From: a virus
Lineage: Duplodnaviria; Caudoviricetes
IMG/VR virus record: IMGVR_UViG_3300034176_000029
Coordinates: 1-57,968 of that record
Length of the DNA stretch: 57,968 nucleotides
Reading direction: 5' to 3' (one strand)
The position numbers and the translations under genes were made by a program. Positions 891-19,069 of this stretch are shown here, piece by piece. The notes under the pieces were generated by a model, which was not told the origin of the DNA, did no database searches, and worked only from the letters and a program-made list of their open reading frames with translations. Within the stretch, counting starts at the first letter, position 1; every line of letters starts with the position of its first letter.

Positions 891-1014
891 ATGTCTGGGG
901 GTATGGTGAGCGCGCACGCGGGATATGTCGATGCAGTGTCCGGACGACGCGGCTTACACACTCCGCATCCCGCGCGCCTAACTTCATTGCAGGACTTTGG
1001 GCCTGCTTCAAGGC

Positions 1015-1063
1015 AAAAAAGGGGCACCACCCGCCTGTTGGTCGGGTGGTGCCCCTCTCCTTT
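1015..1063 (-). terminator. Intrinsic, probably bidirectional, terminator ending the leftward operon
   Basis: Perfect 14-bp stem AGGGGCACCACCCG/CGGGTGGTGCCCCT; A6 on + gives a U tract on -. Confidence 0.8.
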
Positions 1064-1106
1064 GTACCGAGCGGCCAACAGGACCGCTAGGCCCGCTGGC
1101 TTTACC

Positions 1107-1670
1107 TCACTGCGCTACCGCCGGGGAAACCGGCGCCACCCCTGCGACCTCGAGCATCCTGTTCGCCTCGACGTCGGTGTTCGGAGCCCTCGGCGTGCGC
1201 CGCTTGGTCGGGGTCGTCTTCCGGGAGGTCTGCTTGCGGGTCACTGCCGACTTCCGACCAGCCTGCACGCGCACCGGGTCCTTGGGCCGGGTACGAGCCC
1301 TGACCGCTGACGTCACGAACTCCGAAAGGAGGTAGGCGACGACGGTCCACAGGTTCGCAAACTTCGCTCCGAGTGTCCCGCCGGCGATGAAGTTCGCCGT
1401 ACCGGACACCGCGACGGCGAGGATCAGGACGATCAGGCTAGTCCAGAAGCCGCGCCGTGCCAGGTCAGGAATGTGCAGAGCGATGTTGCACGTGATGGCT
1501 AGCAGGTCGACGGTCAGCGGCACCGCGTACGAGGCCACGTCGTCAACGCCCCACGACTTCAGCAACGCGCGCTGGTGGCCGTAGGACACCGCCGCCGCGA
1601 CGACCATGATGAGCGTCGTCGAGAAGCGGGTTCGCTGGAACGCAGTGAGACTGCGTAGGTACTGGAACAT
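1107..1670 (-). CDS. DUF2637-like (SpdA-like) multi-pass membrane protein with a basic C-terminal tail
   Basis: About four hydrophobic helices; VSYGH, PLTVD and SGTAN motifs typical of DUF2637; RBS GGGAGGGAG. Confidence 0.7.
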   Translation of the reverse strand: MFQYLRSLTAFQRTRFSTTLIMVVAAAVSYGHQRALLKSWGVDDVASYAVPLTVDLLAITCNIALHIPDLARRGFWTSLIVLILAVAVSGTANFIAGGTLGAKFANLWTVVAYLLSEFVTSAVRARTRPKDPVRVQAGRKSAVTRKQTSRKTTPTKRRTPRAPNTDVEANRMLEVAGVAPVSPAVAQ

Positions 1671-1689
1671 CGTGGGTCTCCCTCCCACT

Positions 1690-2030
1690 GGCACCCCTCG
1701 GATGGGGGTGCGGGGTGCGAGCGCCGGGTGTGAGCCCGTCTGGGGAGATGCCTGCTCGCTGCCGCGGTGACTTCACGCGGCGTAAGTCTTAGGTGCCGGG
1801 ATCCGCTCCCGGCCGGCGGCGTCTGAGGCTGGCGACTGCTCCCGCGTTGGGATCTAGCTCTCTTCCTGGCTGTCCGTCTGCCTCGCCTCGGACTTGCTGC
1901 ATGGCCGTCGCCTGCTGGACCTTGCGCTGTATTCGTCCGCGCTCGCTTCGACTGGCCTCTGTTTACGTCACTAGCCTCTGACGTCGTGCCCGCCCGGGGC
2001 TCGCACCCGGGCGCCTGCTGGTCGGGCGAA
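1690..2030 (-). ncRNA. Candidate structured RNA domain B (intergenic)
   Basis: No credible ORF; U-poor on the - strand; several stems, a tRNA-minihelix-like element at 1988-2027 and long-range pairings. Confidence 0.4.
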
Positions 2031-2032
2031 CC

Positions 2033-2233
2033 TTATGAGTTGATAAAGCAGATTTGCTGCCATGTCCAGCCGCTTTCGAGGAGGATGCATAGCGCTTCCT
2101 CAGCATCCGAAACAGGGATCGGCTCTTTGCGTTTCCATGCTTCACGCTCAAGGGCTTTCAGGACCATCCGCTCACCGGCAAAGGTCTGATGCATCACTGC
2201 AATTGCCTTGCCGACTTCATCAATGCCCGTCAT
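2033..2233 (-). CDS. Hypothetical protein, 66 aa
   Basis: ATG preceded by GGAAGGAAG RBS; helical-looking sequence. Confidence 0.7.
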   Translation of the reverse strand: MTGIDEVGKAIAVMHQTFAGERMVLKALEREAWKRKEPIPVSDAEEALCILLESGWTWQQICFINS

Positions 2234-2239
2234 GTCGGT

Positions 2240-2552
2240 CTTCCTTCCGACGCTCCGCCGGGATGGCGGGGTGAGTGGACCTGGGTGGATTCGGACCACC
2301 CGCGGTGGACTTACGCCTCGGCGTTCGTTCAGGCTGCCTGGCCGTGCGTGCCTTGCGGTCCTTGGCCCTGGGCGCCGATCGCGCGCTGTGCGCTGCGTAC
2401 TCGTCGCTCCTGGGCTGGTGCCGGTGTCTCACCGGCTGGTTGGCCCGACTGTGTGCGTCGGATTCTCTGGTCGTCGGTCTGGTTCACGGCCTCGGGTCGA
2501 CTGCTTGCGCTGACCTGCACCCTGGGCGGTGGTCCGATCTCCTGTTGTTCTA
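2240..2552 (-). ncRNA. Candidate structured RNA domain A (long 5' leader)
   Basis: Starts just after a good promoter; closed by a 10-bp helix (2528-2537 with 2291-2300); GCAA tetraloops; T-loop-like hairpin at 2283-2301. Confidence 0.45.
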
Positions 2553-2557
2553 CCTTC

Positions 2558-2593
2558 ACTCTACCACTATCAACGGTACTAGCGCAAGTACCG
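2558..2593 (-). promoter_or_regulatory. Leftward sigma70/HrdB-type promoter overlapped by a palindromic operator
   Basis: TTGCGC-N18-TAGAGT; CGGTACT-N6-AGTACCG at 2574-2593 covers the -35 box. Confidence 0.6.
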
Positions 2594-2667
2594 GCATCAT
2601 ACCTTCGGTCAGAGTTCGCCAACGTTCGTACATTCGCGGGCACTAACGCCGGTGCTAGCCTTGACAC

Positions 2668-2892
2668 ATGACCGACCTCGACACCCTCGGCCGTCGCCAC
2701 CGCAAGTTGGTCGCCGACCTGGCCGAACTTCGCGAGCAACTCGCCGACGCCATGCGTACCGATCGTGAGGCCGGCGCAACCTATGTCGACCTGATGAACC
2801 GGTCCGGCTATACCAGCATCGAGACCGTCCGGCAGATCGTGAAGCCCGGCGCCCGCGAGACGGTCAACGCCGGCCGGCGGCGTACGGATTAG
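2668..2892 (+). CDS. Small HTH DNA-binding protein, probably leaderless
   Basis: Coiled N-terminus plus HTH-like ATYVDLMNRSGYTSIETVRQIV; -10 TAGCCT 6 nt before ATG. Confidence 0.7.
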   Translation: MTDLDTLGRRHRKLVADLAELREQLADAMRTDREAGATYVDLMNRSGYTSIETVRQIVKPGARETVNAGRRRTD

Positions 2893-2940
2893 CCGATCAT
2901 CCGACGCCACAACTTGCACGTGTCAGACACGCTAGGTTGT

Positions 2941-3342
2941 GTGACCAGACGCCGCATCGTCATCCTCGCCACCATCGCAGCCGTCCTCGCCGTCAGTGCG
3001 ATCAGCACCATCGCCGCCGCCAGCAAAGACGAACCCGTCCAGCAGTTGGGTACAGCGCCGTTCGACCAGGCAGCGTTCAACACGTGGTGGAACGACCCGG
3101 GCATCCTGCCCATCACCCGCCAGCACGTCACGGCCGTCGATTGGAACTCGGGAATTCTGGTGGCGCACACCAGCCTGTTCGCGGATGGCGACGCGGTCGA
3201 GCCGGCGTTAAAGATCTGCCAAGCCCTCGCCGCCTACTCCGCCGACAAGCCCGACTTCTACCCGGTGCAGGTGATGGACCGCGGCGATCTGATCCTGACA
3301 TCGCGGCACACCCGGGCCGACACATGCCAGTGGCGTAGATAG
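2941..3342 (+). CDS. Secreted or membrane-anchored protein (possible superinfection exclusion / lysogenic conversion)
   Basis: RRR followed by a hydrophobic signal/anchor; two Cys; sits beside the integrase. Confidence 0.65.
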   Translation: MTRRRIVILATIAAVLAVSAISTIAAASKDEPVQQLGTAPFDQAAFNTWWNDPGILPITRQHVTAVDWNSGILVAHTSLFADGDAVEPALKICQALAAYSADKPDFYPVQVMDRGDLILTSRHTRADTCQWRR

Positions 3343-3363
3343 GTTCAGGCTGGGGCTCTCCGA

Positions 3364-3416
3364 TTTGGCAGGAACCTGCCAGGCTTATGTTGTTGAACCT
3401 GGCAGGTCCTGTCAGG
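3364..3416. repeat. Four CCTGNCAGG-like units; candidate att/recombinase site or bidirectional terminator
   Basis: Units at 3364, 3375, 3398 and 3408; 10-bp inverted repeat ACCTGCCAGG/CCTGGCAGGT around a 14-bp AT-rich spacer. Confidence 0.5.
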
Positions 3417-3421
3417 CTGAT

Positions 3422-4282
3422 TTACGCCGCGTTTGCGGTGCCGCCGAGCTGGCTACCATCCAGCTCGGCGGTTCCCATGACGGGTAGGAAACGGATCGCC
3501 GCCGCGTGCCGGCGTTGGGCCACCTTGAGGTAGCCCATGGTTGTTGCCACTGACGCGTGGCCCATCAGCTGGCTCACAACCTCGAGGCCGACGCCTTGAT
3601 CACACAGAGTCGTTGCGAACCAGTGCCGGAATTTGTGCCAGTGAATATCTGGCAGGCCGATACGCTGCCAGTGCCTGCCCTGTGCTCGAGTCAACCAACC
3701 AGCCGTGACAGGGGATCCCTCGTTGTCGCGGATTATCGGGCCTTGCGGGAGTGTCTGAACATAGGCCCACACAACCGGGTGGGTAGGGATGAACCGACTT
3801 TTGCCGCCTTTGCCGTTGCGGACGTGCACGGAGTCTTCGGTCACGTCCGACCGGAGCAGGCGTGCGGCTTCGCCGCAACGCAGCCCTTCGTAGGCGCAGA
3901 GGATGATCGCGGCCCGCCACGGGTCGTCCGGCGAGTTATCGAGCGCCGCGGTCAGTTCACCGTCGGTGACGGGGTGGGGTGTGGAGTCGCCCGGCTTGGG
4001 TCTGGCCACCGTTGTCATCGGATTGAAGTCGATCTTCCCAACGTCGAGCATCGTGCTGTAGTAACTGTTCAGATGCGAGAAGTAGGTTGATCGGGTCCAG
4101 GGTTTACGGCAGGCGGCGAGGATGGCGGAGATCTCGTCGCCGCAGGCCCCGTTCAGGCCTTCGGGTAGGTCACGGTCGATGCGGCGTAGTGCCCGGCAGC
4201 GGGCTCCGATGGTTTCTGTGCTACGTCCGGCGGCTCGTAGCCGTTCGGTGTAGGCGTCGAGAAGGTCTGTCATCTTCGGCAT
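3422..4282 (-). CDS. int: Tyrosine integrase/recombinase, 286 aa, no arm-binding domain, C-terminal ANAA
   Basis: Catalytic set GLR, GKGGK, HKFRH, LMGH, TMGY; RBS AAAGGAG. Confidence 0.95.
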   Translation of the reverse strand: MPKMTDLLDAYTERLRAAGRSTETIGARCRALRRIDRDLPEGLNGACGDEISAILAACRKPWTRSTYFSHLNSYYSTMLDVGKIDFNPMTTVARPKPGDSTPHPVTDGELTAALDNSPDDPWRAAIILCAYEGLRCGEAARLLRSDVTEDSVHVRNGKGGKSRFIPTHPVVWAYVQTLPQGPIIRDNEGSPVTAGWLTRAQGRHWQRIGLPDIHWHKFRHWFATTLCDQGVGLEVVSQLMGHASVATTMGYLKVAQRRHAAAIRFLPVMGTAELDGSQLGGTANAA

Positions 4283-4292
4283 GCTGCTCCTT

Positions 4293-4757
4293 TCACGCTC
4301 TGCGCGTAAGCCCGTACGGGCTGTAGGTCTGACGTTCGGCGACACGGCTAGTCCTTGTCGACCCGTCGGGTTTGATTGATCCGGACGGATGCCCGATAGG
4401 CCGGCCGTCACCTGGCCGTGTAGAGATTCTTCGATTCATGGGACGACGTGACACGATCTTCGTCGGGAGAAATGTCTCGGTAACCCCTGATCTTCGACGC
4501 AGCCTCGACCCGGCCAGAAGCCAGCCGAAGTCACAACCGGTTCGCTCAGAGATCGTCGACGCGATCTCCACAACATCACGTGGAGCTCGGCCATCGCGCT
4601 CCCACCTGCGCCAACTCTCAACGGGAAGCCCGCATGCGTCCGCGGCTTCCTTGAGATTGCCCCAAGCCATGCGCTGCCGGATCAGAGCCAGACGGGCGCC
4701 GAACGTGGAGTCGTCGGCCACCCAGCCTGTCCGGTGCTCGCCAACCGAAGTGGTCAT
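4293..4757 (-). CDS. Immunity repressor (XRE-type HTH) with a long low-complexity C-terminal tail
   Basis: FGARLALIRQ..LKEAADACGLPVESWRRWE..FGWLLAG; divergent from cro; upstream of int. Confidence 0.85.
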   Translation of the reverse strand: MTTSVGEHRTGWVADDSTFGARLALIRQRMAWGNLKEAADACGLPVESWRRWERDGRAPRDVVEIASTISERTGCDFGWLLAGSRLRRRSGVTETFLPTKIVSRRPMNRRISTRPGDGRPIGHPSGSIKPDGSTRTSRVAERQTYSPYGLTRRA

Positions 4758-4851: not shown

Positions 4852-5049
4852 ATGACATCGCGTACGGCGCTTCTCACCACCAATGAGGTGGCTGATGAGT
4901 GCAAGGTAACCGCTGAAACTGTGCGGGTGTGGGTGCGAGATGGCCGACTCGCCGCGATCACCCTGCCGGGTGGATCCAAGCGGTTCCGCCGCGAAGACGT
5001 CGACAGGCTGCTCACCCCGACCGAGCCCACCACGGCTGGTGCGGCGTGA
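4852..5049 (+). CDS. Cro/excisionase-like HTH (HTH_17 type), C-terminal AGAA
   Basis: LLTTNEVADECKVTAETVRVWVRDGRL..LPGG..RF signature. Confidence 0.85.
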   Translation: MTSRTALLTTNEVADECKVTAETVRVWVRDGRLAAITLPGGSKRFRREDVDRLLTPTEPTTAGAA

Positions 5050-7091: not shown

Positions 7092-7348
7092 CCGGGTTCG
7101 ATGAGACGCCGCCGCCGTCGTGGCAGGAGATCGCCGAAGGGTTGGCCAACCAACTTCAAGAACTGCGGGAGGAATTGGCAACGGCGCGCACGTTGGCGAA
7201 CGCGACGATCAACGAGTGGCGTCCGGTCATCACTGCAGCCAAGGCATGGCGGGCGCAGTTCAGCAACTCAGCCGACACGAAGCTGCCGCGAATGTGGGCA
7301 CTCATCGAAGCCGTCGACAACCTCACGGCGGATGGCGGTGCCTCATGA
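7088..7348 (+). CDS. Hypothetical coiled-coil protein
   Basis: ATGA overlap. Confidence 0.7.
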   Translation: MTGFDETPPPSWQEIAEGLANQLQELREELATARTLANATINEWRPVITAAKAWRAQFSNSADTKLPRMWALIEAVDNLTADGGAS

Positions 7349-7488
7349 CCCCCACCCCGTCTGCCCGTCTCACCGCCCGTCAGGTGCAGGTTTTGCGCAT
7401 CCTCAACACACCCGCCGGGGTGTATGTGCGCGAGTCGCCGCTGCTGGATGCGGTGGCGTACGCCGAACGGATGAGGAGGCGGCGGTGA
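7345..7488 (+). CDS. Hypothetical protein, 47 aa
   Basis: Overlaps on both sides. Confidence 0.55.
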   Translation: MTPTPSARLTARQVQVLRILNTPAGVYVRESPLLDAVAYAERMRRRR

Positions 7489-8513
7489 CCCCGTACTACG
7501 CCGACGACTCGGTGACGCTGTACCACGGCGGCGCCCTGGATGTCCTGTGCGCGATGCCGAACGGCTCCGTCGACTGCTGCGTTACATCGCCGCCGTACTA
7601 CGGGCTACGGGACTACAGCGTGCCGGGACAACTCGGGCTTGAGCCCATGCCGGCCACGTACGTCTCGCGCATACGGGCTGTGTTCACCGAGGTCCGTCGT
7701 GTGCTGGCCAACGACGGGACCCTGTGGCTCAATCTGGGTGACTCGTATGTCACCAACGGCTCGGGTAGCCGCACCCACCCCGGCTACCTGGGTGGCCGGC
7801 CAAACGCCGTCACCACGCCGCAAGGCTTCGGCGCCAAGCCGGGTGTGCCGAAAAACCTGCTCGGCATTCCGTGGCGGGTGGCGTTCGCGCTTCAAGACGA
7901 CGGTTGGATCTTGCGCAACGCAGTGGTGTGGGACAAGCCGAACGCTATGCCCGAGTCGGTCACGGACAGGCTGGCAACGACGTACGAGCTCGTCTTCCTG
8001 TTCGCGAAGTCACCTCGGTACCACTTCGACCTTGACGCCATCCGCGAACCGCTCCTGTATCCCGATGCCCTCGACGGGACTCGCGTCTTCGGTGGCAAGT
8101 CCAATGGCGCTGGGGGGGTCGGAGCGACGGCCCGGCGGCGTGGAGCTCACCGCAGCGTCTACGGCGCAACCGGAATGCCGGAGCAGACCAACATGGGACC
8201 GACCGGCTCGCGGCACACCCACACCAGCGAGAAGGGCCGCAACCCCGGCGACGTGTGGACTATCCCCACCCAACCGTTCCCCGAGGCGCACTTCGCCGTC
8301 ATGGCGCCAGAGCTGGCACGTCGTCTCGTCGTGACCGGTTGCAAACCAGGCGGCACGGTGCTGGACCCGTTCTGCGGCGTCGGTACGACCGGCATGGTCG
8401 CCGGGCAGAACGGGCGCCGGTTCGTCGGCATCGACATCTCGTCCGAAACGCTGGACCTGGCTCTACGGACGCGCCTGGCGCAGGGCCCGCTGATTGAGGA
8501 GTCAGCGTCATGA
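7485..8513 (+). CDS. Beta-class amino DNA methyltransferase (N4-C or N6-A; SPPY suggests N4-C)
   Basis: VTSPPY motif IV precedes LDPFCGVGTTG motif I; H.A.M motif. Confidence 0.93.
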   Translation: MTPYYADDSVTLYHGGALDVLCAMPNGSVDCCVTSPPYYGLRDYSVPGQLGLEPMPATYVSRIRAVFTEVRRVLANDGTLWLNLGDSYVTNGSGSRTHPGYLGGRPNAVTTPQGFGAKPGVPKNLLGIPWRVAFALQDDGWILRNAVVWDKPNAMPESVTDRLATTYELVFLFAKSPRYHFDLDAIREPLLYPDALDGTRVFGGKSNGAGGVGATARRRGAHRSVYGATGMPEQTNMGPTGSRHTHTSEKGRNPGDVWTIPTQPFPEAHFAVMAPELARRLVVTGCKPGGTVLDPFCGVGTTGMVAGQNGRRFVGIDISSETLDLALRTRLAQGPLIEESAS

Positions 8514-10766: not shown

Positions 10767-11002
10767 TGGCCATCATCCACATCGCCGACCGGGCCGTACC
10801 CCCGCCCACCCCGTGCCCGCAGTGCGGCGGCAGCCGCGTCGCTCCCATGACGTGGCTGGGCGGATCCGCCAGCAACTGGCGACACAACCCATGCCCCGAA
10901 TGCCGCTGCGAAATCTGCGGCCGGGCAACTGATACGCCGCCGGTGTGTGCGCGGTGCGACATCGCCGACGACGCCGCCGCGGTACGGAGGGCGGACGTAT
11001 GA
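10766..11002 (+). CDS. Cys-rich Zn-binding protein
   Basis: Four CxxC pairs. Confidence 0.65.
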   Translation: MAIIHIADRAVPPPTPCPQCGGSRVAPMTWLGGSASNWRHNPCPECRCEICGRATDTPPVCARCDIADDAAAVRRADV

Positions 11003-11154
11003 GCCGCCGCTACATCATCGCCCAACGCCGGGCCATCCTCTGCGGCACCACTGCTCAGCAGCGCGCCGAACAGGAACAGCACCGGCGGCTACGAGCCGAA
11101 GCATTGGAACGAGACCGGCGGCTGGCTGCAGCAATCAGGAAGGCGTCGCAATGA
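10999..11154 (+). CDS. Hypothetical protein, 51 aa
   Basis: ATGA overlaps on both sides. Confidence 0.55.
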   Translation: MSRRYIIAQRRAILCGTTAQQRAEQEQHRRLRAEALERDRRLAAAIRKASQ

Positions 11155-12482
11155 TCGGCACCACCAGTATTGAGCTGACCAAGCAGCAAGCCGAAGCCGG
11201 CGCCAAAATCAAGGCATGGTTCGTTGACGGCGACCAGGTCTTCCGCCTATTCGGCTACGCCGGCACCGGCAAAACATCCACCGCTCGGTACCTAATCGAC
11301 CAGCTCGGCGTGAACGATGTCCAGTTCGCCGCCTACACCGGCAAAGCCGCCTACGTCCTGCGCACCAAGGGCTGTGCCGCCGCGTCCACCATTCACAGCC
11401 TCGTCTACCTGCCATCGGAGAAAGCCCGAGCCCGGCTCGCCGAACTCACCGAAAAGCTCGACAACGAAACCAGCGACGCAAAGCGTGCCATCCTTACGCG
11501 CCAGATCGACGCCGAGAAACGCAAGCTCGAATCCCCGAACTGGATACTGCGCGAACCCGAAGACACCATACTCCACGGCGCCGACCTGCTCGTCATCGAC
11601 GAGGTATCGATGGTTGGCGAACGAGTTGCCCTGGACCTGCTCTCGTTCGGTGTCAAAACACTAGTGCTGGGCGACCCGGCACAACTCCCGCCCGTCGACG
11701 GCGGCGGATGGTTCATCGACGCCCAACCCGACCACCTGCTCACCGAGATTCACCGGTCCGCGCTCGATTCACCCGTCACCCGCATAGCCACTACCGTGCG
11801 AGGCGCCCAGGTGGGCGAACGCGACTACGGCATCACGGGCCTCGACGGCGACTCAGGCCGGATCGACCGGATCCGCATCGGTGACCTCCTCGAATACGAC
11901 CAGGTGCTGTGCGGCACCAACAAAACCCGCTGGCAAGCCATCCACCTACTCCGCGCGCTGCGCGGCCTGAGTAGCAACATGCCCATGGTTGGCGACCGCA
12001 TCATGGTTCTCGCCAACTCCGGCAGCGCCGAGGTGTTCAACGGCCAACAGTTCGCCGTACGCGAAGCCAACGACGTGGCCGGCAAAGAGGATCGGATCCG
12101 GCTCGAGGTTACCGACGACGAGGGCCACGACCGCGAACTCACCTGCTGGCGAGCCGGCTTCACCGGAATGGAGGGTGAGCGGCAGGCCAAGCGCGACGGT
12201 CGCGGCTCCATCGCCGCCGCCACATTCGGACAAGCCATCACCGTCCACAAAGCACAAGGTTCACAGTGGGAACGGGTCCTGGTCGTCGACGAGTCCAACG
12301 TGTTCGCCAACATCGAGTCCAAGACCGAATTTCAGGCCCGCCGCAGAATGGGCCTACCCGACGACGGACACTCCCGCGCAGCCGGCCATCGCGCAGGACA
12401 ACGCTGGCTCTACACCGCGGCAACCAGGGCGGCCGAGCAAATCATCATCGTGCCTCGGCTCAACGGATCGATCACCCCATGA
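11151..12482 (+). CDS. Dda/RecD-like SF1B helicase
   Basis: GYAGTGKT, VIDEVSM, GDPAQLPPV, ITVHKAQGSQW, YTAATRA. Confidence 0.95.
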   Translation: MIGTTSIELTKQQAEAGAKIKAWFVDGDQVFRLFGYAGTGKTSTARYLIDQLGVNDVQFAAYTGKAAYVLRTKGCAAASTIHSLVYLPSEKARARLAELTEKLDNETSDAKRAILTRQIDAEKRKLESPNWILREPEDTILHGADLLVIDEVSMVGERVALDLLSFGVKTLVLGDPAQLPPVDGGGWFIDAQPDHLLTEIHRSALDSPVTRIATTVRGAQVGERDYGITGLDGDSGRIDRIRIGDLLEYDQVLCGTNKTRWQAIHLLRALRGLSSNMPMVGDRIMVLANSGSAEVFNGQQFAVREANDVAGKEDRIRLEVTDDEGHDRELTCWRAGFTGMEGERQAKRDGRGSIAAATFGQAITVHKAQGSQWERVLVVDESNVFANIESKTEFQARRRMGLPDDGHSRAAGHRAGQRWLYTAATRAAEQIIIVPRLNGSITP

Positions 12483-13504: not shown

Positions 13505-14155
13505 ATGACCCAAGACGCCAACGACCTGCTCATGTCCGGTGGAATCCTCGGCTACAAATGGGTCGCCATCGGCGATACCGTGATCGGCACCATCGTCGAG
13601 GAACCCAAAGTCGCACAATCCACCGACACCAAAACGGGCGAAGCGCAGTTCTGGCCCTCCGGTGACCCCAAAATGAACATCGTCGTCATCCTGCAAACCG
13701 ACTTACGCGACCCGGCCGACTCCACCGACGACGGCAAGCGGCGTCTCTACATCTCTTCCCGCATGATGCCCGCAGTCCGCGACGCAGTGAAACGTGCCGG
13801 CGCCAAAGGCATCGCCGTCGGTGGTCGTATCGCCGCACGGTGGGTCAGCGGTTCAGGCCAGGGCGAAGGCAACGCCCGCGAATACGCCGCCGACTACGCC
13901 CCCCCAACCGTCGACCCAGGATCGCTACTTACGGCGACGCCTGCGCAGGTAGTTGCAGCTGCCCCATTGACTGCAGCACCCGTGGCCACACCGGTAAACG
14001 GCTCCCTGCTGTCAATGGCCGTACCCACCCCTACCGCCAACATGGCACCACCACTTGGTGTCGACCCTGCCGTCTGGGCTGTCCTGCCCGAAGCACAGCG
14101 ACAGGCCGTCCTCGCCTCCCTCGTCAACCCGGCCGCCACCGCCCCCCCGTTCTGA
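13505..14155 (+). CDS. Putative single-stranded DNA-binding protein
   Basis: OB-fold-like beta-rich N-domain, low-complexity tail ending PPF; between exonuclease and primase. Confidence 0.7.
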   Translation: MTQDANDLLMSGGILGYKWVAIGDTVIGTIVEEPKVAQSTDTKTGEAQFWPSGDPKMNIVVILQTDLRDPADSTDDGKRRLYISSRMMPAVRDAVKRAGAKGIAVGGRIAARWVSGSGQGEGNAREYAADYAPPTVDPGSLLTATPAQVVAAAPLTAAPVATPVNGSLLSMAVPTPTANMAPPLGVDPAVWAVLPEAQRQAVLASLVNPAATAPPF

Positions 14156-14170
14156 TCCGAGACGCAAACC

Positions 14171-14205
14171 CGGCCCGTGCCGTTCTCCGTCGTCGGCACG
14201 GGCCG
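14171..14205 (+). terminator. 12-bp stem-loop after the SSB gene
   Basis: CGGCCCGTGCCG/CGGCACGGGCCG; no U tract. Confidence 0.4.
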
Positions 14206-14252
14206 CAAGCCCATCCATCAGTCGATCAATGCACATGAATGGGGGTGATACG

Positions 14253-17126
14253 TTGTACGACGAACAGGCGGTACGTGACTGGCTGACACTGCTGCACAGC
14301 CAGGCGCCCGGCCTCACCCACATCTGCTCCACCGGCGATTGGACCGGCCACGCACACACCGAACTCGAAGCCGCAGTCCGCCGCGTCACCTACCTCAACG
14401 GTGAAGGCCGCGAAGGCATCTATGCCCGCGTCACTACCCTCAAAGCCGCACTAGCACCCGGCAGTCGAGGTGGTGCCGCCGACACCCTCGCCCTGCCCGG
14501 CCTATGGGCAGACGTCGACCTGGCCGGGCCCGGCCACCTGCACGACCCCACCAAATACGACGGTCGGGTACTACCGCCCAACGAAGATGCCGGCCGGGCC
14601 CTCATCGCCATCTCCGGCCTACCCGCACCCACCTTGTGGATCCACTCCGGTGGAGGGCTATACCCGATCTGGCTCCTCGACACCCCATACATCCTGCCCA
14701 ACGACGACCACGCCCGCGGTGCACTCATCCACCTGGCCGCCACCTGGCAGAAAGTTATCGCTGCTGCCAGCAAGACGATCGGCTGGCACTACGGCTCCGG
14801 CGTAGGCGACCTCGCCCGCGTCCTACGCATCCCCGGCACAGTCAACCGCAAAGCCGGCCTACAACGCCCCTGCCGCATCATCGAGCACACCGGGCCCCGA
14901 TACACCCTGCTCGACCTGAGGGCCGCCCTCGCACGCGCCAGCGCCGCACTGACACCCGAACCCGCGCCACCATCACTGCTGACCGTCGCGACACCCGCCA
15001 CAGCGTCAGGGCCACGCACCGCAGCCGATCCCGGAGTCGACTTCAACGCCCGGACAACCTGGCCCGCCATCCTCACCCCGCACGGCTGGACCGAGCACTA
15101 CCGAACCGACGACGGAGCCACCCACTGGACCCGGCCCGGCAAAACCACCGACACCTCAGCCACCACCAACGCACTGGGCACCGACCGCCTCCACGTGTTC
15201 TCCACCAACGCACCACCATTCGAAGCCAACGAGAGCTACCACAAGTTCGCCGCCTACACCCTGCTCAACCACCGCGGCGACTACACCGCAGCAACCCGCG
15301 AACTCGCCCGCGCCGGATACGGCGAACAGATCAACTACGGCGCCCGACAAGCCGAACTCCTTACCGGCATCCTCGGCCCCGACCGTGCCGCCGAAAACAA
15401 GCCGCCCTCGGCCAACGAGCCCAAAACAGTACGAGCTAAAGGTCCGCCCTCAAGGTACTTCGACGCCAACGGCTCCCTGTTCGCCCGCGTCCTCGCCGAC
15501 GACGTCCTCACCCTCGGCCCGGTCGCAACCGGCGGAGACGACCTGCCCTGGTCATACCACGGCGGCGTCTGGTCGCCCGCCAAGCACATCGTCCGCAACC
15601 GCGTTACCGAACTGCTCGGCGACCGGTACCGCCCCACCCACCGCAGCACCGTCGAAGACATCGTCCGCGCCCTCGCCCGGCACATCACCTGCGACCCCGT
15701 CCCCGATCTGATCAACTTCAGCAACGGCCTGCTCGACTGGCACATCGGAACACTCCGCGATCACACACCCGACATCGCCACCACCGTGCAAGTCGGCGTG
15801 CCCTGGCGACCCGATGCGACCTGCCCACGCTTCGACGCCTTCCTGACCGAAGTCGTGCCCCTGGACATGGTCGAGGTCGTGTGGGAACTCATCGGCTACC
15901 TGATGTACTCGGGCAACCCGCTCCACAAGGCCGTGATGCTCATGGGCACCGGCCGCAACGGCAAAGGCACCCTGCTGCGCGCCATCGTCGCCCTGCTCGG
16001 CAAGCGCAACGTCACCGCGGTCAGCCTCCAGGACCTGGTCTCCACCCGATTCACCACCGCCAGCCTATTCGGGAAGATCGCCAACATCGCAGGCGACATC
16101 GACGCCACCTACCTGGAGTCGACCGCAATCTTCAAAGCCATCACCGGCCAGGATCAGATCAGCGCCGAGCACAAAGGACGCGACCGGTTCGATTTCACAC
16201 CGTGGGCCGTGCCCGTATTCTCAGCCAACGAAATCCCGCCATCCTCCGACACCACCGTCGGCTACCTGTCCCGCTGGCTCCTCATCCCATTTCCACACTC
16301 ATTCATTGGCAAAGAAGACCGCGATCTAGACGCCAAACTCCACGCCGAACTACCCGGCATAGCCGTTAAAGCAATCACCGCACTACGTCGACTAATGGAC
16401 CGTGGAGAATTCGAACAACCTGAATCCGCCCGTGCCGCACAGGACGAGTTCGCCCGCCGAGTCGATCAGATCCGCTCATGGCTCGGCGACTGCTGCGAGC
16501 TCACCCCGGCACCACACGACCCCGCAGCGGATCCGTTGGTGCCGAGGACTGCGCTCTACCAGGCGTACCGGCAATGGTGCGCAAGGGACGGTCACAAGGC
16601 CATGGCGGCGTCGAAGTTCTTCGATCGGTTGGAGCATGCCGGGGCGACGGCTGCGATTGTCCGGGGGTGCAGAGGCTTCCGCGGGGTACGGATCGTGGAT
16701 CAGGCAGACCCGCCGCGCCTACTCGATACCGCTACCCAACGTATTTGGGGTGACACGGATAGTGTTGGGGGTGCAGGTGGGGTGCAGGTTGGGGTGCAGC
16801 TTTTTGACCCCCAGCTGCACCCCCAAATGGCTGCACCACCTGCACCCCACAACGAATCACCCCAGGTCACGCAGGGTCCCCCCAGAACAGACGATCAAGG
16901 GGGTGCAGAGGGTGCAGCTTTTACAAACCCTTTACGCACGTACGCGGGTGACACGCGCGTATACACGCGTATAGGGGGGGTTAGCGAAAAGCTGCACCCC
17001 CTGCACCCCCCTGCACCCTTGATCAATTCCTGCTCTGTCTGCGGCCGCGAGCTCGATCCGGCGCTCGCGCCAAAGTGGCACGACCTCAACATCCATCCAA
17101 GCTGCCACACCGAGGCAGCCACATGA
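14253..17126 (+). CDS. DNA primase (RepB/AEP-like) fused to a D5/P4-type SF3 helicase
   Basis: WADVD, HSGGG, RVLRIPGT primase motifs; GTGRNGKGT Walker A; FSAN motif C; alternative start 14235. Confidence 0.93.
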   Translation: MYDEQAVRDWLTLLHSQAPGLTHICSTGDWTGHAHTELEAAVRRVTYLNGEGREGIYARVTTLKAALAPGSRGGAADTLALPGLWADVDLAGPGHLHDPTKYDGRVLPPNEDAGRALIAISGLPAPTLWIHSGGGLYPIWLLDTPYILPNDDHARGALIHLAATWQKVIAAASKTIGWHYGSGVGDLARVLRIPGTVNRKAGLQRPCRIIEHTGPRYTLLDLRAALARASAALTPEPAPPSLLTVATPATASGPRTAADPGVDFNARTTWPAILTPHGWTEHYRTDDGATHWTRPGKTTDTSATTNALGTDRLHVFSTNAPPFEANESYHKFAAYTLLNHRGDYTAATRELARAGYGEQINYGARQAELLTGILGPDRAAENKPPSANEPKTVRAKGPPSRYFDANGSLFARVLADDVLTLGPVATGGDDLPWSYHGGVWSPAKHIVRNRVTELLGDRYRPTHRSTVEDIVRALARHITCDPVPDLINFSNGLLDWHIGTLRDHTPDIATTVQVGVPWRPDATCPRFDAFLTEVVPLDMVEVVWELIGYLMYSGNPLHKAVMLMGTGRNGKGTLLRAIVALLGKRNVTAVSLQDLVSTRFTTASLFGKIANIAGDIDATYLESTAIFKAITGQDQISAEHKGRDRFDFTPWAVPVFSANEIPPSSDTTVGYLSRWLLIPFPHSFIGKEDRDLDAKLHAELPGIAVKAITALRRLMDRGEFEQPESARAAQDEFARRVDQIRSWLGDCCELTPAPHDPAADPLVPRTALYQAYRQWCARDGHKAMAASKFFDRLEHAGATAAIVRGCRGFRGVRIVDQADPPRLLDTATQRIWGDTDSVGGAGGVQVGVQLFDPQLHPQMAAPPAPHNESPQVTQGPPRTDDQGGAEGAAFTNPLRTYAGDTRVYTRIGGVSEKLHPLHPPAPLINSCSVCGRELDPALAPKWHDLNIHPSCHTEAAT
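16766..17018. repeat. Iteron array, candidate replication origin inside the primase-helicase gene
   Basis: Eleven GGTGCAG units in two converging clusters around palindromic purine-pyrimidine tracts. Confidence 0.75.
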
Positions 17127-18117: not shown

Positions 18118-18428
18118 CCACCCTCACCCGCACCGCCTGGGGCCTGGACCTGGCGAAGGATGATCAAATCTGGCGGCAGAACGCCAACTGCGGCCCGGCC
18201 GTCGCCGACTGGTTCTGGCTCGTCGGCGGATCCAACGGCCGCGGCAACCACACACCGCGACTCACCGGCGACAACAAGGCCGCGTTGGCCCTGTGCGATC
18301 ACTGCCCGGTCCTGGCGCAGTGCCTGGCCGACGAACTGGCCCACCCCACGCCGTATGCCCACATCGGCGCCGGACGGGTGTGGACGGCGCGCGACCTGAC
18401 GCTGGTGGCCAAGGACGGGCAGCGATGA
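18114..18428 (+). CDS. whiB: WhiB-family transcription factor
   Basis: C..ALALCDHCPVLAQC four-Cys pattern and a degenerate HIGAG turn. Confidence 0.8.
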   Translation: MTTLTRTAWGLDLAKDDQIWRQNANCGPAVADWFWLVGGSNGRGNHTPRLTGDNKAALALCDHCPVLAQCLADELAHPTPYAHIGAGRVWTARDLTLVAKDGQR

Positions 18429-19069
18429 AACCCAAGATCCTTGATCTCTACTGTGGTGCCGGTGGAGCTGCTATGGGATACCACCAAGCCGGCTTCGACG
18501 TGGTTGGTGTCGATCATGTGCCTCAGCCGCGGTACCCGTTCGAGTTCCACCAGGCCGACGCGATGACGTTTCCGCTGGACGGGTACGACGCCATCCACGC
18601 CTCGCCGCCGTGCCACGACCACTCGCCGTTGCGCTCTCGAGCTGGCGAGCACGGAACCGGCTGGATGCTCGACGCCACGTTGACGCGACTGGCGAATCAG
18701 CCAGCCGTCTGGGTTGTTGAGAACGTGAGCTCCGCGCACAACCGGGCCGACTTCCTGCTGTGCGGCGAGATGTTCGGCCTGCGCACCATCCGGCACCGCC
18801 GGTTCACCGTCGACCCTCGTTTCGGCGCGCTACTTGCCGTCCCTCCACACGAACGGCACCGCCGGCCGACGCGTACGAAGAAGCGGCGCGTCTGCCTCGA
18901 CGCTGGCATGAACATCTCGGTCACCGGCGATGTCGGCAACTACGTCGGACCGCTGTGCATGGGCATCGACTGGATGACCGGCGACGAGCTCAGCCAGGCC
19001 ATTCCGCCGGCATACACCCGCTTCATCGGTGAACAGTTGCTGGCCGCCGGCGAGAGGACCGCCGCATGA
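18425..19069 (+). CDS. C5 cytosine DNA methyltransferase (short phage type)
   Basis: LDLYCGAGG, ASPPC, VENV, R.R.F, AIPP. Confidence 0.88.
   Translation: MKPKILDLYCGAGGAAMGYHQAGFDVVGVDHVPQPRYPFEFHQADAMTFPLDGYDAIHASPPCHDHSPLRSRAGEHGTGWMLDATLTRLANQPAVWVVENVSSAHNRADFLLCGEMFGLRTIRHRRFTVDPRFGALLAVPPHERHRRPTRTKKRRVCLDAGMNISVTGDVGNYVGPLCMGIDWMTGDELSQAIPPAYTRFIGEQLLAAGERTAA

Follow-up and report, generated by a model that had tools for sequence, protein, structure and literature searches.

We describe here a conserved RNA family, which we call M1, in the leftward transcript of a high-G+C, temperate phage of the Caudoviricetes (Duplodnaviria). The phage is represented by IMG/VR record IMGVR_UViG_3300034176_000029, a linear stretch of 57,968 bases estimated to be about 81% complete, which was analysed in its entirety and is referred to below as the window. 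M1 occupies the 3' two-thirds of the first of two U-poor blocks, A (2234-2552) and B (1695-2032), that flank a 66-codon open reading frame (ORF66). It contains a cloverleaf of tRNA-like shape, and 27 distinct loci carrying it were collected from phage, metagenome and Micromonosporaceae contigs. The region as a whole is the untranslated framework of a leftward operon, with a promoter, a leader, optional small genes and a DUF2637 gene, situated near an integrase. A preliminary description, made from the sequence alone, had proposed a structured non-coding RNA on the - strand, with tRNA-like elements, that had not been described before. Covariation, indels and a lack of codon periodicity among the homologues bear out the structured RNA, and the tRNA-like elements are there in the form of the cloverleaf and of a minihelix in block B. 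Rfam 15 holds no match and the literature searched holds nothing relevant. As a tentative best explanation, resting on the anatomy, we propose that these elements serve as tRNA-like punctuation for processing by RNase P and RNase Z, together with stabilisation of the mRNA; among the functions listed in the preliminary description, processing at tRNA-like elements fits that anatomy best.

The features of block A and of the ORF that follows it are, in the direction of transcription:

2558-2587, - strand: putative promoter, with a -35 element TTGCGC (2582-2587), an 18-nt spacer and a -10 element TAGAGT (2558-2563).
Near 2551-2553, - strand: inferred transcript start (GGUAGAAC).
2481-2535, - strand: SL1, a long 5' hairpin from RNAalifold that holds the 5' strand of the 'closing helix' of the preliminary description.
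2445-2461, - strand: SL2, hairpin CCGAC-GCACACA-GUCGG, kept in locus L078.
2421-2435, - strand: SL3, hairpin CCGGUGAGACACCGG, seen as CCGGCGAGA(A/G/C)GCCGG in L069, L079, L081, L091 and L093 (alignment by eye).
2365-2415, - strand: SL5, a long irregular hairpin of 51 nt, first half of the M1 core.
2275-2361, - strand: tRNA-like structure (TLS), a cloverleaf of about 87 nt, from covariation and single folds.
2357-2361 with 2277-2281, - strand: acceptor-like helix of the cloverleaf, GGACC/GGUCC, with variants GGACU/AGUCC and GCCCC/GGGGC.
Within the cloverleaf, - strand: a short variable hairpin, its second element.
Within the cloverleaf, - strand: an 'anticodon-like' arm in two parts, with a conserved 12-nt loop and a GNRA-like bulge (GUAA; GGAA elsewhere).
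2283-2301, - strand: T arm, with the 3' tail AC at 2275-2276.
2234-2269, - strand: start module A, a hairpin CCGCC-AUCC-CGGCGG (2255-2269) and a hairpin GUCGG-AAGGAAGA-CCGAC (2234-2251) with the Shine-Dalgarno (SD) sequence in its loop, abutting the AUG at 2233.
2033-2233, - strand: ORF66, an orphan of 66 residues and atypical composition, with the SD hairpin directly before its AUG.

The family was collected by way of the DUF2637 protein, which led to two distinct related phage loci, and of conserved words upstream, which led to further loci in viral, genome and metagenome contigs. Removal of duplicates and chance matches left 20 distinct M1 copies, on which a covariance model, R1, was built. 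In 683 kb of fetched DNA, dozens of unrelated loci included, R1 matches those copies only; L017, L018 and most of 60 matches to a looser pattern were rejected as chance and served as its negative controls. Among 151 genomes drawn from the family to which the L076-bearing genome belongs, it detects M1 in three, with L097 being a new and divergent member; the copies in these Micromonosporaceae contigs are intact. A last pattern scan, which took the 5' hairpin and not the 'anticodon' arm as its anchor, yielded six further copies in combination with R1, bringing the total to 27; the window's own M1 core (2274-2419 by the model) has 26 homologues. An R1 scan of the window finds no second copy, and the notion that blocks A and B are diverged duplicates was likewise discarded, their 72% identity in a MAFFT alignment being an effect of composition.

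The case for the cloverleaf rests chiefly on compensatory change. In a MAFFT alignment of 20 sequences that was not fitted to any structure, 91.6% of the cells concerned are paired, as against 77.7 +/- 1.3 in shuffled alignments (0/500 reaching it) and 25-50% when the pairing is slid, and 10 of the 19 pairs show double changes. The covariance-model alignment of 27 sequences, which leans towards the structure by construction, gives 93.5% paired (75.9% shuffled), double changes at 15 of the 19 pairs and a covariation score of 0.439 against 0.114, with none of 500 shuffles attaining any of these measures. Comparison with Rfam and covariation among homologues were the checks recommended in the preliminary description: the former returned no family at the gathering threshold and the latter is strong for the M1 core. 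Of the elements of the cloverleaf, the acceptor-like helix, the T arm and the two-part third arm are backed by covariation; in the last of these a C:G pair is swapped to G:C in 7/27 copies, and the inner GCC/GGC becomes GGC/GCC or GUCC/GGAC in divergent members. The loop of this arm (CGAnCACCG) and its GNRA-like bulge are still recognisable in the seven homologues whose selection did not depend on this motif. Minimum free energy (MFE) folds of single sequences recover the acceptor and T arm in most copies.

The cloverleaf begins two to three bases after SL5, which was judged by single-sequence folds and not by column-wise covariation: each of 20 homologues folds into one extended hairpin, with z-scores of -0.38 to -4.15 (19/20 below -1.5). 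Further upstream, RNAalifold gives SL1 and SL2 a total of 22 pairs, six with compensatory changes, across the window, L078, L077 and L097; in L077, for instance, SL2 reads CCGGC/GCCGG, an A-U to G-C replacement. Against shuffles, the fold of block A has z = -4.13, the whole region -4.12, block B alone -1.55 and the opposite strand -2.90. Close pairs of M1 copies differ by 1- and 2-nt indels, with no three-base periodicity, as expected of non-coding sequence, T makes up 5.7-11.4% of all M1 cores, and G-U outnumbers A-C in paired cells by 11 to 4, slightly favouring the - strand. Two more conserved intergenic words recur in relatives (L002 2618-2680 and 2680-2710; L003 2303-2360; just after M1 in L078, L079 and L062): AAGGCYUAGCCGCUGAGCC follows the cloverleaf, and UGACACCUCCGGUGGGGC...GCCCACGCCGUGGCCGUCAGGCC stands right after stop codons. 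They suggest a larger kit of shuffled RNA modules.

As modelled, the likeness to tRNA lies in a four-way junction whose closing helix is coaxial with a hairpin bearing a 7-nt, T-loop-like loop. This loop is UUCGA in 11/20 copies, and the stack of T stem and acceptor comes to 11-13 bp in 14/20, the other six having been mis-scored by a column-anchored script; in tRNA this stack is 12 bp. The two bases after the closing helix are AC in 24/27 (counted from the alignment). T-arm-like hairpins number exactly two in the window, both strands included, namely the T arm of M1 and that of the minihelix in block B; both are in this transcript (1.12 +/- 1.0 expected for the whole window). Five relatives have more of them downstream of M1 on the same strand, and in L061 and L011, by reading, they stand shortly after the stop codons of small ORFs, as in the window. 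Additional tRNA-like elements, second and third ones, are present in the same operons, at 1500-1600 and 1744 in L087 and at 600-700 (oriented) in L079; their T stems measure 5 bp and their loops read UUCGA. From reading the sequence, one of those in L087 has an apparent 7-bp acceptor-like helix and a tetraloop-capped 'anticodon' stem.

A further regularity is found where translation starts. At each cistron start there is a small hairpin and then a 5-bp hairpin that displays the SD sequence in a loop of 7-8 nt and touches the AUG. An SD and AUG follow the 3' end of M1 by 35-47 nt in 23/27 loci, 21 of these at 38-42 nt; of the remaining four, the locus ends too early in two, and the spacer is long in the other two. 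Across the operons we counted 16 SD hairpins with four compensating stems, namely GUCGG/CCGAC (6), GUGGG/CCCAC (5), GGUGG/CCACC (3) and GUCCG/CGGAC (2), leaving out three further rows of the scan that look like chance. A generic scan of the window for an SD in a hairpin loop shows no enrichment (35 vs 25.8 +/- 6.4), and only the conserved, covarying hairpins were counted as evidence.

Downstream of ORF66 the transcript continues through block B into the DUF2637 gene, with these features:

1986-2027, - strand: acceptor/T-arm minihelix, GCCCG (2023-2027) with CGGGC (1988-1992), a linker on the 5' side, CCGGG-UGCGAGC-CCCGG and the tail AC.
1846-1985, - strand: lineage-specific U-poor spacer, including the hairpin ACGUCA-GAGGCUAG-UGACGU (1965-1984).
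1668-1845, - strand: M2, a second conserved leader module of about 170 nt, including the AUG at 1668-1670.
1796-1812, - strand: M2 hairpin CCGGGA-GCGGA-UCCCGG.
1754-1759 with 1717-1722, - strand: M2 helix P_x, GCGAGC/GCUCGC; a single copy has the swapped form GCGCCC/GGGCGC.
1725-1738, - strand: M2 hairpin HP-a.
1691-1711, - strand: M2 hairpin HP-b.
1672-1688, - strand: M2 SD-in-loop hairpin GUGGG-AGGGAGA-CCCAC.
1107-1670, - strand: gene for a DUF2637-family membrane protein (Pfam PF10935, E = 4.6e-10).

The minihelix starts 6 nt after the ORF66 stop codon and has the geometry of the acceptor/T part of the cloverleaf without the other arms. Over 44 nt it is 93% identical to an intergenic stretch of Actinomyces phage xhp1 (L098 1501-1544), in the sense of the flanking genes, and it hardly varies across 11 other viral contigs (L099-L109; G+C 0.62-0.68), where by reading it falls in U-poor intergenic leaders about 55 nt before a start codon. 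From these sequence matches, it looks like a separate and wider RNA family. The spacer at 1846-1985 is not similar to any fetched locus. M2 has homologues in L002, L003 (two copies), L009, L010 and L079, and its consensus fold for seven sequences has 23 pairs, nine with compensatory changes; it is found before DUF2637 genes and other genes alike.

The predicted transcript runs from about 2551 through ORF66 (2233-2033) to the DUF2637 gene (1670-1107). Its promoter had been called good in the preliminary description; we would grade it as plausible and not strong, because a consensus scan for sigma-70-like sites called none at 1000-3500 and the -35 element agrees with the consensus at only 3/6 positions (by eye), the point in its favour being that the -10-like TAGAGT and the following G(G)UAGAAC (GGUAGAAC) are kept in L077, L078, L081, L086, L093 and L097. 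The same description had noted the poverty in U, and this is pronounced: block A has 6.6% U and block B 8.0%, compared with 21.4% T in the intervening ORF, and the 300-nt stretches at 2251 and 1701 rank first and second in all 58 kb for the lowest + strand A. A tblastn search with the window's DUF2637 protein gives matches on nine other M1-bearing loci, which by their coordinates are placed downstream of M1; the DUF2637 gene is a recurrent cargo of the operon. Integrases lie within a few kb of M1 in four relatives (L084, L085, L094 and L069).

The arrangement of two blocks flanking an ORF, on which the preliminary description was built, is not a conserved unit. In L091 M1 stands directly 5' of the DUF2637 gene, and in L079 it is followed by M2 with no ORF between, a second T-arm element being present in the spacer; other relatives carry different small ORFs. 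ORF66 belongs to no Pfam, PHROG, NCBIfam or PADLOC family, its sole match among about 5.8 billion proteins is itself, and the viral contigs hold no relative. Its G+C at codon positions is foreign (GC3 about 0.53, compared with 0.8-0.97 in the DUF2637 gene), and we take it to be an orphan insertion. Since L091 and L079 lack the intervening ORF and ORF66 has no homologue, the conserved entity is a modular leader system; a bipartite RNA built about this ORF it is not. In a soil run, one DNA contig passes directly from 1696 to 2446, so that 749 nt (1697-2445) are missing; with 20 nt on its shorter side and a likeness below 95 this junction is weak. It would mean a relative without ORF66 and block B and is not used as evidence.

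The pairings listed in the preliminary description are all present on the - strand of the window. The proposed closing helix of block A (2528-2537, UCGGACCACC, with 2291-2300, GGUGGUCCGA) pairs at 10/10 positions, and the hairpin said to compete with it, GGGUGG-UCCGAAU-CCACCC at 2283-2301, is the T arm of the cloverleaf. The minihelix (1988-2027) is there, as are its two alternative partners (1713-1722, GCUCGCACCC, with 1999-2008, 10/10; 1724-1737 with 1997-2010, 13/14) and the link between the blocks across the ORF (2308-2317 with 1779-1788, 10/10). On such grounds one might envisage a conformational switch in which long-range helices (5' leader with T arm, A with B, minihelix with M2) compete with local hairpins and thereby gate processing or translation. 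Three perfect long-range complementarities of at least 10 bp occur in the region, where 300 dinucleotide shuffles give 0.33 +/- 0.58 (fraction reaching three, 0.003), an excess to which helices sharing words such as GCGAGC may contribute; moreover, the MFE fold of block A uses the closing helix, and the closest relative, L078, keeps nine of its ten pairs, three as G-U. In the other relatives, however, the closing helix decays to 7, 4, 6, 6 and 2 of 10, and both of its strands retain local partners, in SL1 and the T arm, with compensatory changes. The link between A and B is no better than chance (0.06), and none of 15 other loci has an equivalent. As for the alternative partners in block B, 1713-1722 contains the 3' strand of P_x and 1724-1737 is HP-a, both being locally paired; by reading, the complementarity of minihelix and M2 is explicable by the word GCGAGC common to two helices, and relatives lack ORF66 and the minihelix altogether. 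A switch is very unlikely and, if there is one, would be specific to this lineage.

Processing is the reading we favour because acceptor/T-arm mimics are repeated on one strand, a discriminator-like A follows each closing helix, a fixed, hairpin-capped 5' untranslated region of about 40 nt comes after the cloverleaf, and the SD is placed in a loop. Processing would be followed by stabilisation of each cistron and by efficient initiation on it. The tRNA-like modules would be punctuation marks read by the tRNA-processing enzymes of the host. The cuts of RNase P would fall immediately 5' of the acceptor-like helices, before G2361 and before G2027, and those of an RNase Z-type activity after the discriminator-like A, at A2276 and A1987. 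The leader would thereby be detached, and each mRNA would begin at a set point some 40 nt upstream of its AUG, with a protective hairpin cap and the SD held open. The depletion of U and the dense G+C pairing may in turn protect the long untranslated stretches from single-strand endonucleases and Rho, an argument that draws on the properties of RNase E and Rho. A precedent is offered by the YrlA RNA of M. smegmatis, which resembles tRNA without being one: RNase P cuts it in vitro, and in vivo it undergoes cleavage and CCA-tailing (PMC4201824).

Several observations weigh against this proposal. The acceptor-like helix has 5-7 bp, and the YrlA report names a 7-bp acceptor as a major determinant of cleavage (PMC4201824). 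A 1-nt spacer separates T stem and acceptor in 12/20 copies, the T loop is non-canonical in 9/20, including the window's own UCCGAAU, and the cloverleaf has neither a D loop with GG nor a 7-nt anticodon loop. ARAGORN finds no tRNA or tmRNA gene in the window, RF00005 has no match at E <= 10 in 1400-2900 or on the M1 copies of 15 loci, and the folding energies of the TLS are unremarkable (z from +0.59 to -2.55). Four public runs, all of them contigs, were compared with the window; the sole RNA-library contig (156 nt) covers 1468-1623 inside the DUF2637 gene, with none on the leader, and such a library can contain DNA, so that this result is neutral as to the leader. Lastly, the conserved loop of the 'anticodon' arm and the GNRA-like bulge have no role in pure processing and suggest an additional, specific partner, which is why regulatory and decoy models are kept alive.

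Prominent among these is a cis-regulatory leader, that is, a put- or nut-like antitermination RNA or a protein-binding site, in which the cloverleaf and loop form the recognition surface and U-less terminators after stop codons are overridden. Such a role would suit the position of M1, which begins at the inferred transcript start just 3' of the promoter, the sequence-specific partner to which the conserved loop and bulge point, the hairpins directly after the stop codons of small ORFs and the small divergent ORF without known family (2668-2892) that adjoins the promoter. It would nonetheless leave the copying of acceptor/T-arm geometry unexplained; no terminator-like site was called on the - strand at 1000-3500, no candidate RNA-binding protein was identified, and known antitermination RNAs show no relation in sequence or in Rfam. 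On balance we consider it unlikely. Somewhat more improbable is an action in trans, in which the cloverleaf or the minihelices, released or in place, would as tRNA mimics titrate a tRNA-binding factor (for example a defence nuclease aimed at tRNA, a modification enzyme or the CCA-adding enzyme) or would be a stable Y-RNA-like non-coding RNA. The covarying tRNA-shaped fold agrees with this, as does the near-invariance of the minihelix across phages of distant actinobacterial hosts, which fits recognition by a conserved host factor. The operon also lies near the integrase, where prophage genes acting on other phages are often found. Bacterial Y RNAs are a precedent for tRNA mimicry (PMC4201824). 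On the other hand, the window has no Ro60/TROVE gene, the neighbouring proteins include no PADLOC family, and the fixed spacing of 38-42 nt to the AUG argues for a role in cis.

The tRNA-like parts might also be read at the level of DNA, as remnants or cores of attP derived from host tRNA genes. The attP sites of tRNA-integrating elements carry the T-arm and the acceptor 3' strand, and the distance from M1 to a tyrosine integrase is a few kb in the window as in the four relatives named above. This reading is nevertheless disfavoured and most improbable: it is RNA helices that the compensatory changes uphold, among them the 5' acceptor strand and an arm foreign to tRNA; the acceptor 3' strand is constant across phages and the T stems vary, the opposite of what copies of different host tRNAs would show; the composition is strand-specific and the distance to the AUG fixed; and M1 is intact in the three Micromonosporaceae assemblies. 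That the blocks encode a low-complexity protein, or that their structure arose by chance, is hardly conceivable. U-poor sequence has few stops and long open frames do overlap the blocks (e.g. 2329-2919 and 2220-2432), yet block A has a stop in every frame, the indels and missing periodicity of close homologues speak against coding, the frame 2329-2919 matches no Pfam family, and the covariation statistics exclude a chance structure.

tRNA-like structures are well known from plant RNA viruses, tmRNA, Y RNAs and MALAT1. A bona fide tRNA gene is ruled out by the ARAGORN and RF00005 negatives, the 5-7 bp acceptor and the 12-nt 'anticodon' loop. The same Rfam search did find a real tRNA gene in L087, which provides a positive control; it lies at 3057-3127 on the - strand of that locus (47.7 bits), about 2 kb from M1 and on the opposite strand to it, and could mark the integration site of that phage. 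M1 is like the tRNA-like domain of tmRNA in that a T arm and an acceptor helix are combined with an insert foreign to tRNA where the anticodon arm would be. The whole domain is only about 87 nt here, however, and tmRNA was rejected, ARAGORN and Rfam being negative and the acceptor pair 3:70 not being G-U. A G-U at this place is the alanine identity pair; the corresponding pair in M1 (alignment 78:179) is A:U in 23/27 copies, C:G in three and G:C in one. Across the whole window Rfam 15 gave no match at the gathering threshold, and nothing significant was found on M1 in 15 loci; the region's only matches are two weak ones on the + strand (E = 0.53 and 6.8). Small self-cleaving ribozymes, hammerhead and others, were likewise set aside for want of an Rfam match, and the word CUGAACGA resembles the hammerhead core only superficially (by eye).

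YrlA-type Y RNAs, some of them phage-encoded, are similar in being non-tRNA RNAs with a tRNA-like domain of T arm and acceptor-like stem (PMC4201824). YrlA is a free RNA of about 100 nt with a Ro-binding stem, whereas M1 would form the 5' leader of an mRNA and keeps a constant spacing to the start codon. Membership in this group was rejected: PF05731 (Ro60/TROVE) was not found in the window (controls positive in 2/14 genomes), and no Y RNA or YrlA family of Rfam matched at E <= 10 in the region or E <= 5 in 15 loci, the GNCGAAN0-1G motif of the Ro-binding stem (PMC4201824) not having been searched separately. The mascRNA/MALAT1-type and viral tRNA-like structures, which are substrates of RNase P, share with M1 a fold embedded in a longer transcript, the processing of which would define the flanking ends, but those are eukaryotic or of RNA viruses, and M1 differs by its large non-tRNA 'anticodon' arm, its 5-7 bp acceptor and the lack of CCA; the L087 copy matches the mascRNA model faintly (E = 3.7), far below the gathering score and not significantly. 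Punctuation of polycistronic transcripts by tRNAs is known from mitochondria, the tRNA-mRNA co-transcripts of the tufB operon and the tRNA region of phage T4. In the phage operon, too, tRNA-shaped elements stand between or before the cistrons of one transcript on the same strand, except that they are minimal mimics and not functional tRNAs. The lambda nut and HK022 put sites are cis-acting phage antitermination RNAs of one or two simple stem-loops. The phage operon resembles them in having structured RNA right after an early or leftward promoter and again after the first small gene, but M1 is a cloverleaf with a T loop, and no relation in sequence or structure was found. Neither Rfam 15 nor the literature covered, most subscription journals lying outside that coverage, yielded a report of a DNA-phage operon whose conserved 5' leader is a cloverleaf backed by covariation; the M1 family thus appears to be undescribed.

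The leader locus is situated to the left of the integrase, on the - strand, and the genes to its right include:

3422-4411, - strand: tyrosine integrase (Pfam/library profile scans).
4293-4757, - strand: repressor-like helix-turn-helix (HTH) protein (profile scans).
4852-5049, + strand: excisionase-like HTH_17 protein (profile scans).

Beyond these lies a rightward early region that includes an N6/N4 DNA methylase (7101-8513), a C5 cytosine methylase (18293-19069), an SF1 (PIF1/UvrD-like) helicase (10947-12482) and a D5-type primase-helicase (14055-17126). Two rightward ORFs on the + strand separate the leader promoter from the integrase, one of 74 residues (2668-2892) and one of 142 (2914-3342), neither with a family in Pfam, PHROGs, NCBIfam or PADLOC. 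The former, being divergent from the M1 promoter, could be its regulator, and the latter has a 43%-identical relative in L013. At the left end, a 151-residue ORF (190-645, + strand; PHROG 21481, of unknown function) is 79% identical to an ORF beyond the DUF2637 gene in L085; this end of the window is therefore phage DNA and not host flank. The related genome contigs are named as an Actinoplanes metagenome-assembled genome (MAG) and a Micromonosporaceae MAG. Among soil actinobacteria, to which the hosts of the phage belong, Micromonosporaceae is therefore the probable family.

Taking the wider view, it is possible, if doubtful, that actinobacterial phages carry hitherto unrecognised tRNA-mimic punctuation modules, the M1 cloverleaf and the minihelix common to phages of Micromonosporaceae and Actinomyces/Schaalia. 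These would recruit RNase P, RNase Z and possibly the CCA-adding enzyme in order to cut messages, protect their ends and perhaps tag them, and the released mimics might double as decoys against tRNA-directed defences. The M1 family, which is now defined by 27 sequences and a covariance model and for which the predicted cleavage sites are exact, is directly testable. If the elements prove to be decoys or protein-binding sites, they would point to a phage-host interaction of an unknown kind around the DUF2637 membrane protein. If they are processing signals, they would constitute a new class of natural substrates of RNase P and RNase Z, a marker for a group of temperate phages, and a compact and portable means of fixing where mRNAs end and how stable they are in high-G+C actinobacteria, a group of industrial interest. 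Should the proposed punctuation hold true, it would be the counterpart, in a bacterial virus, of the tRNA punctuation of mitochondria.

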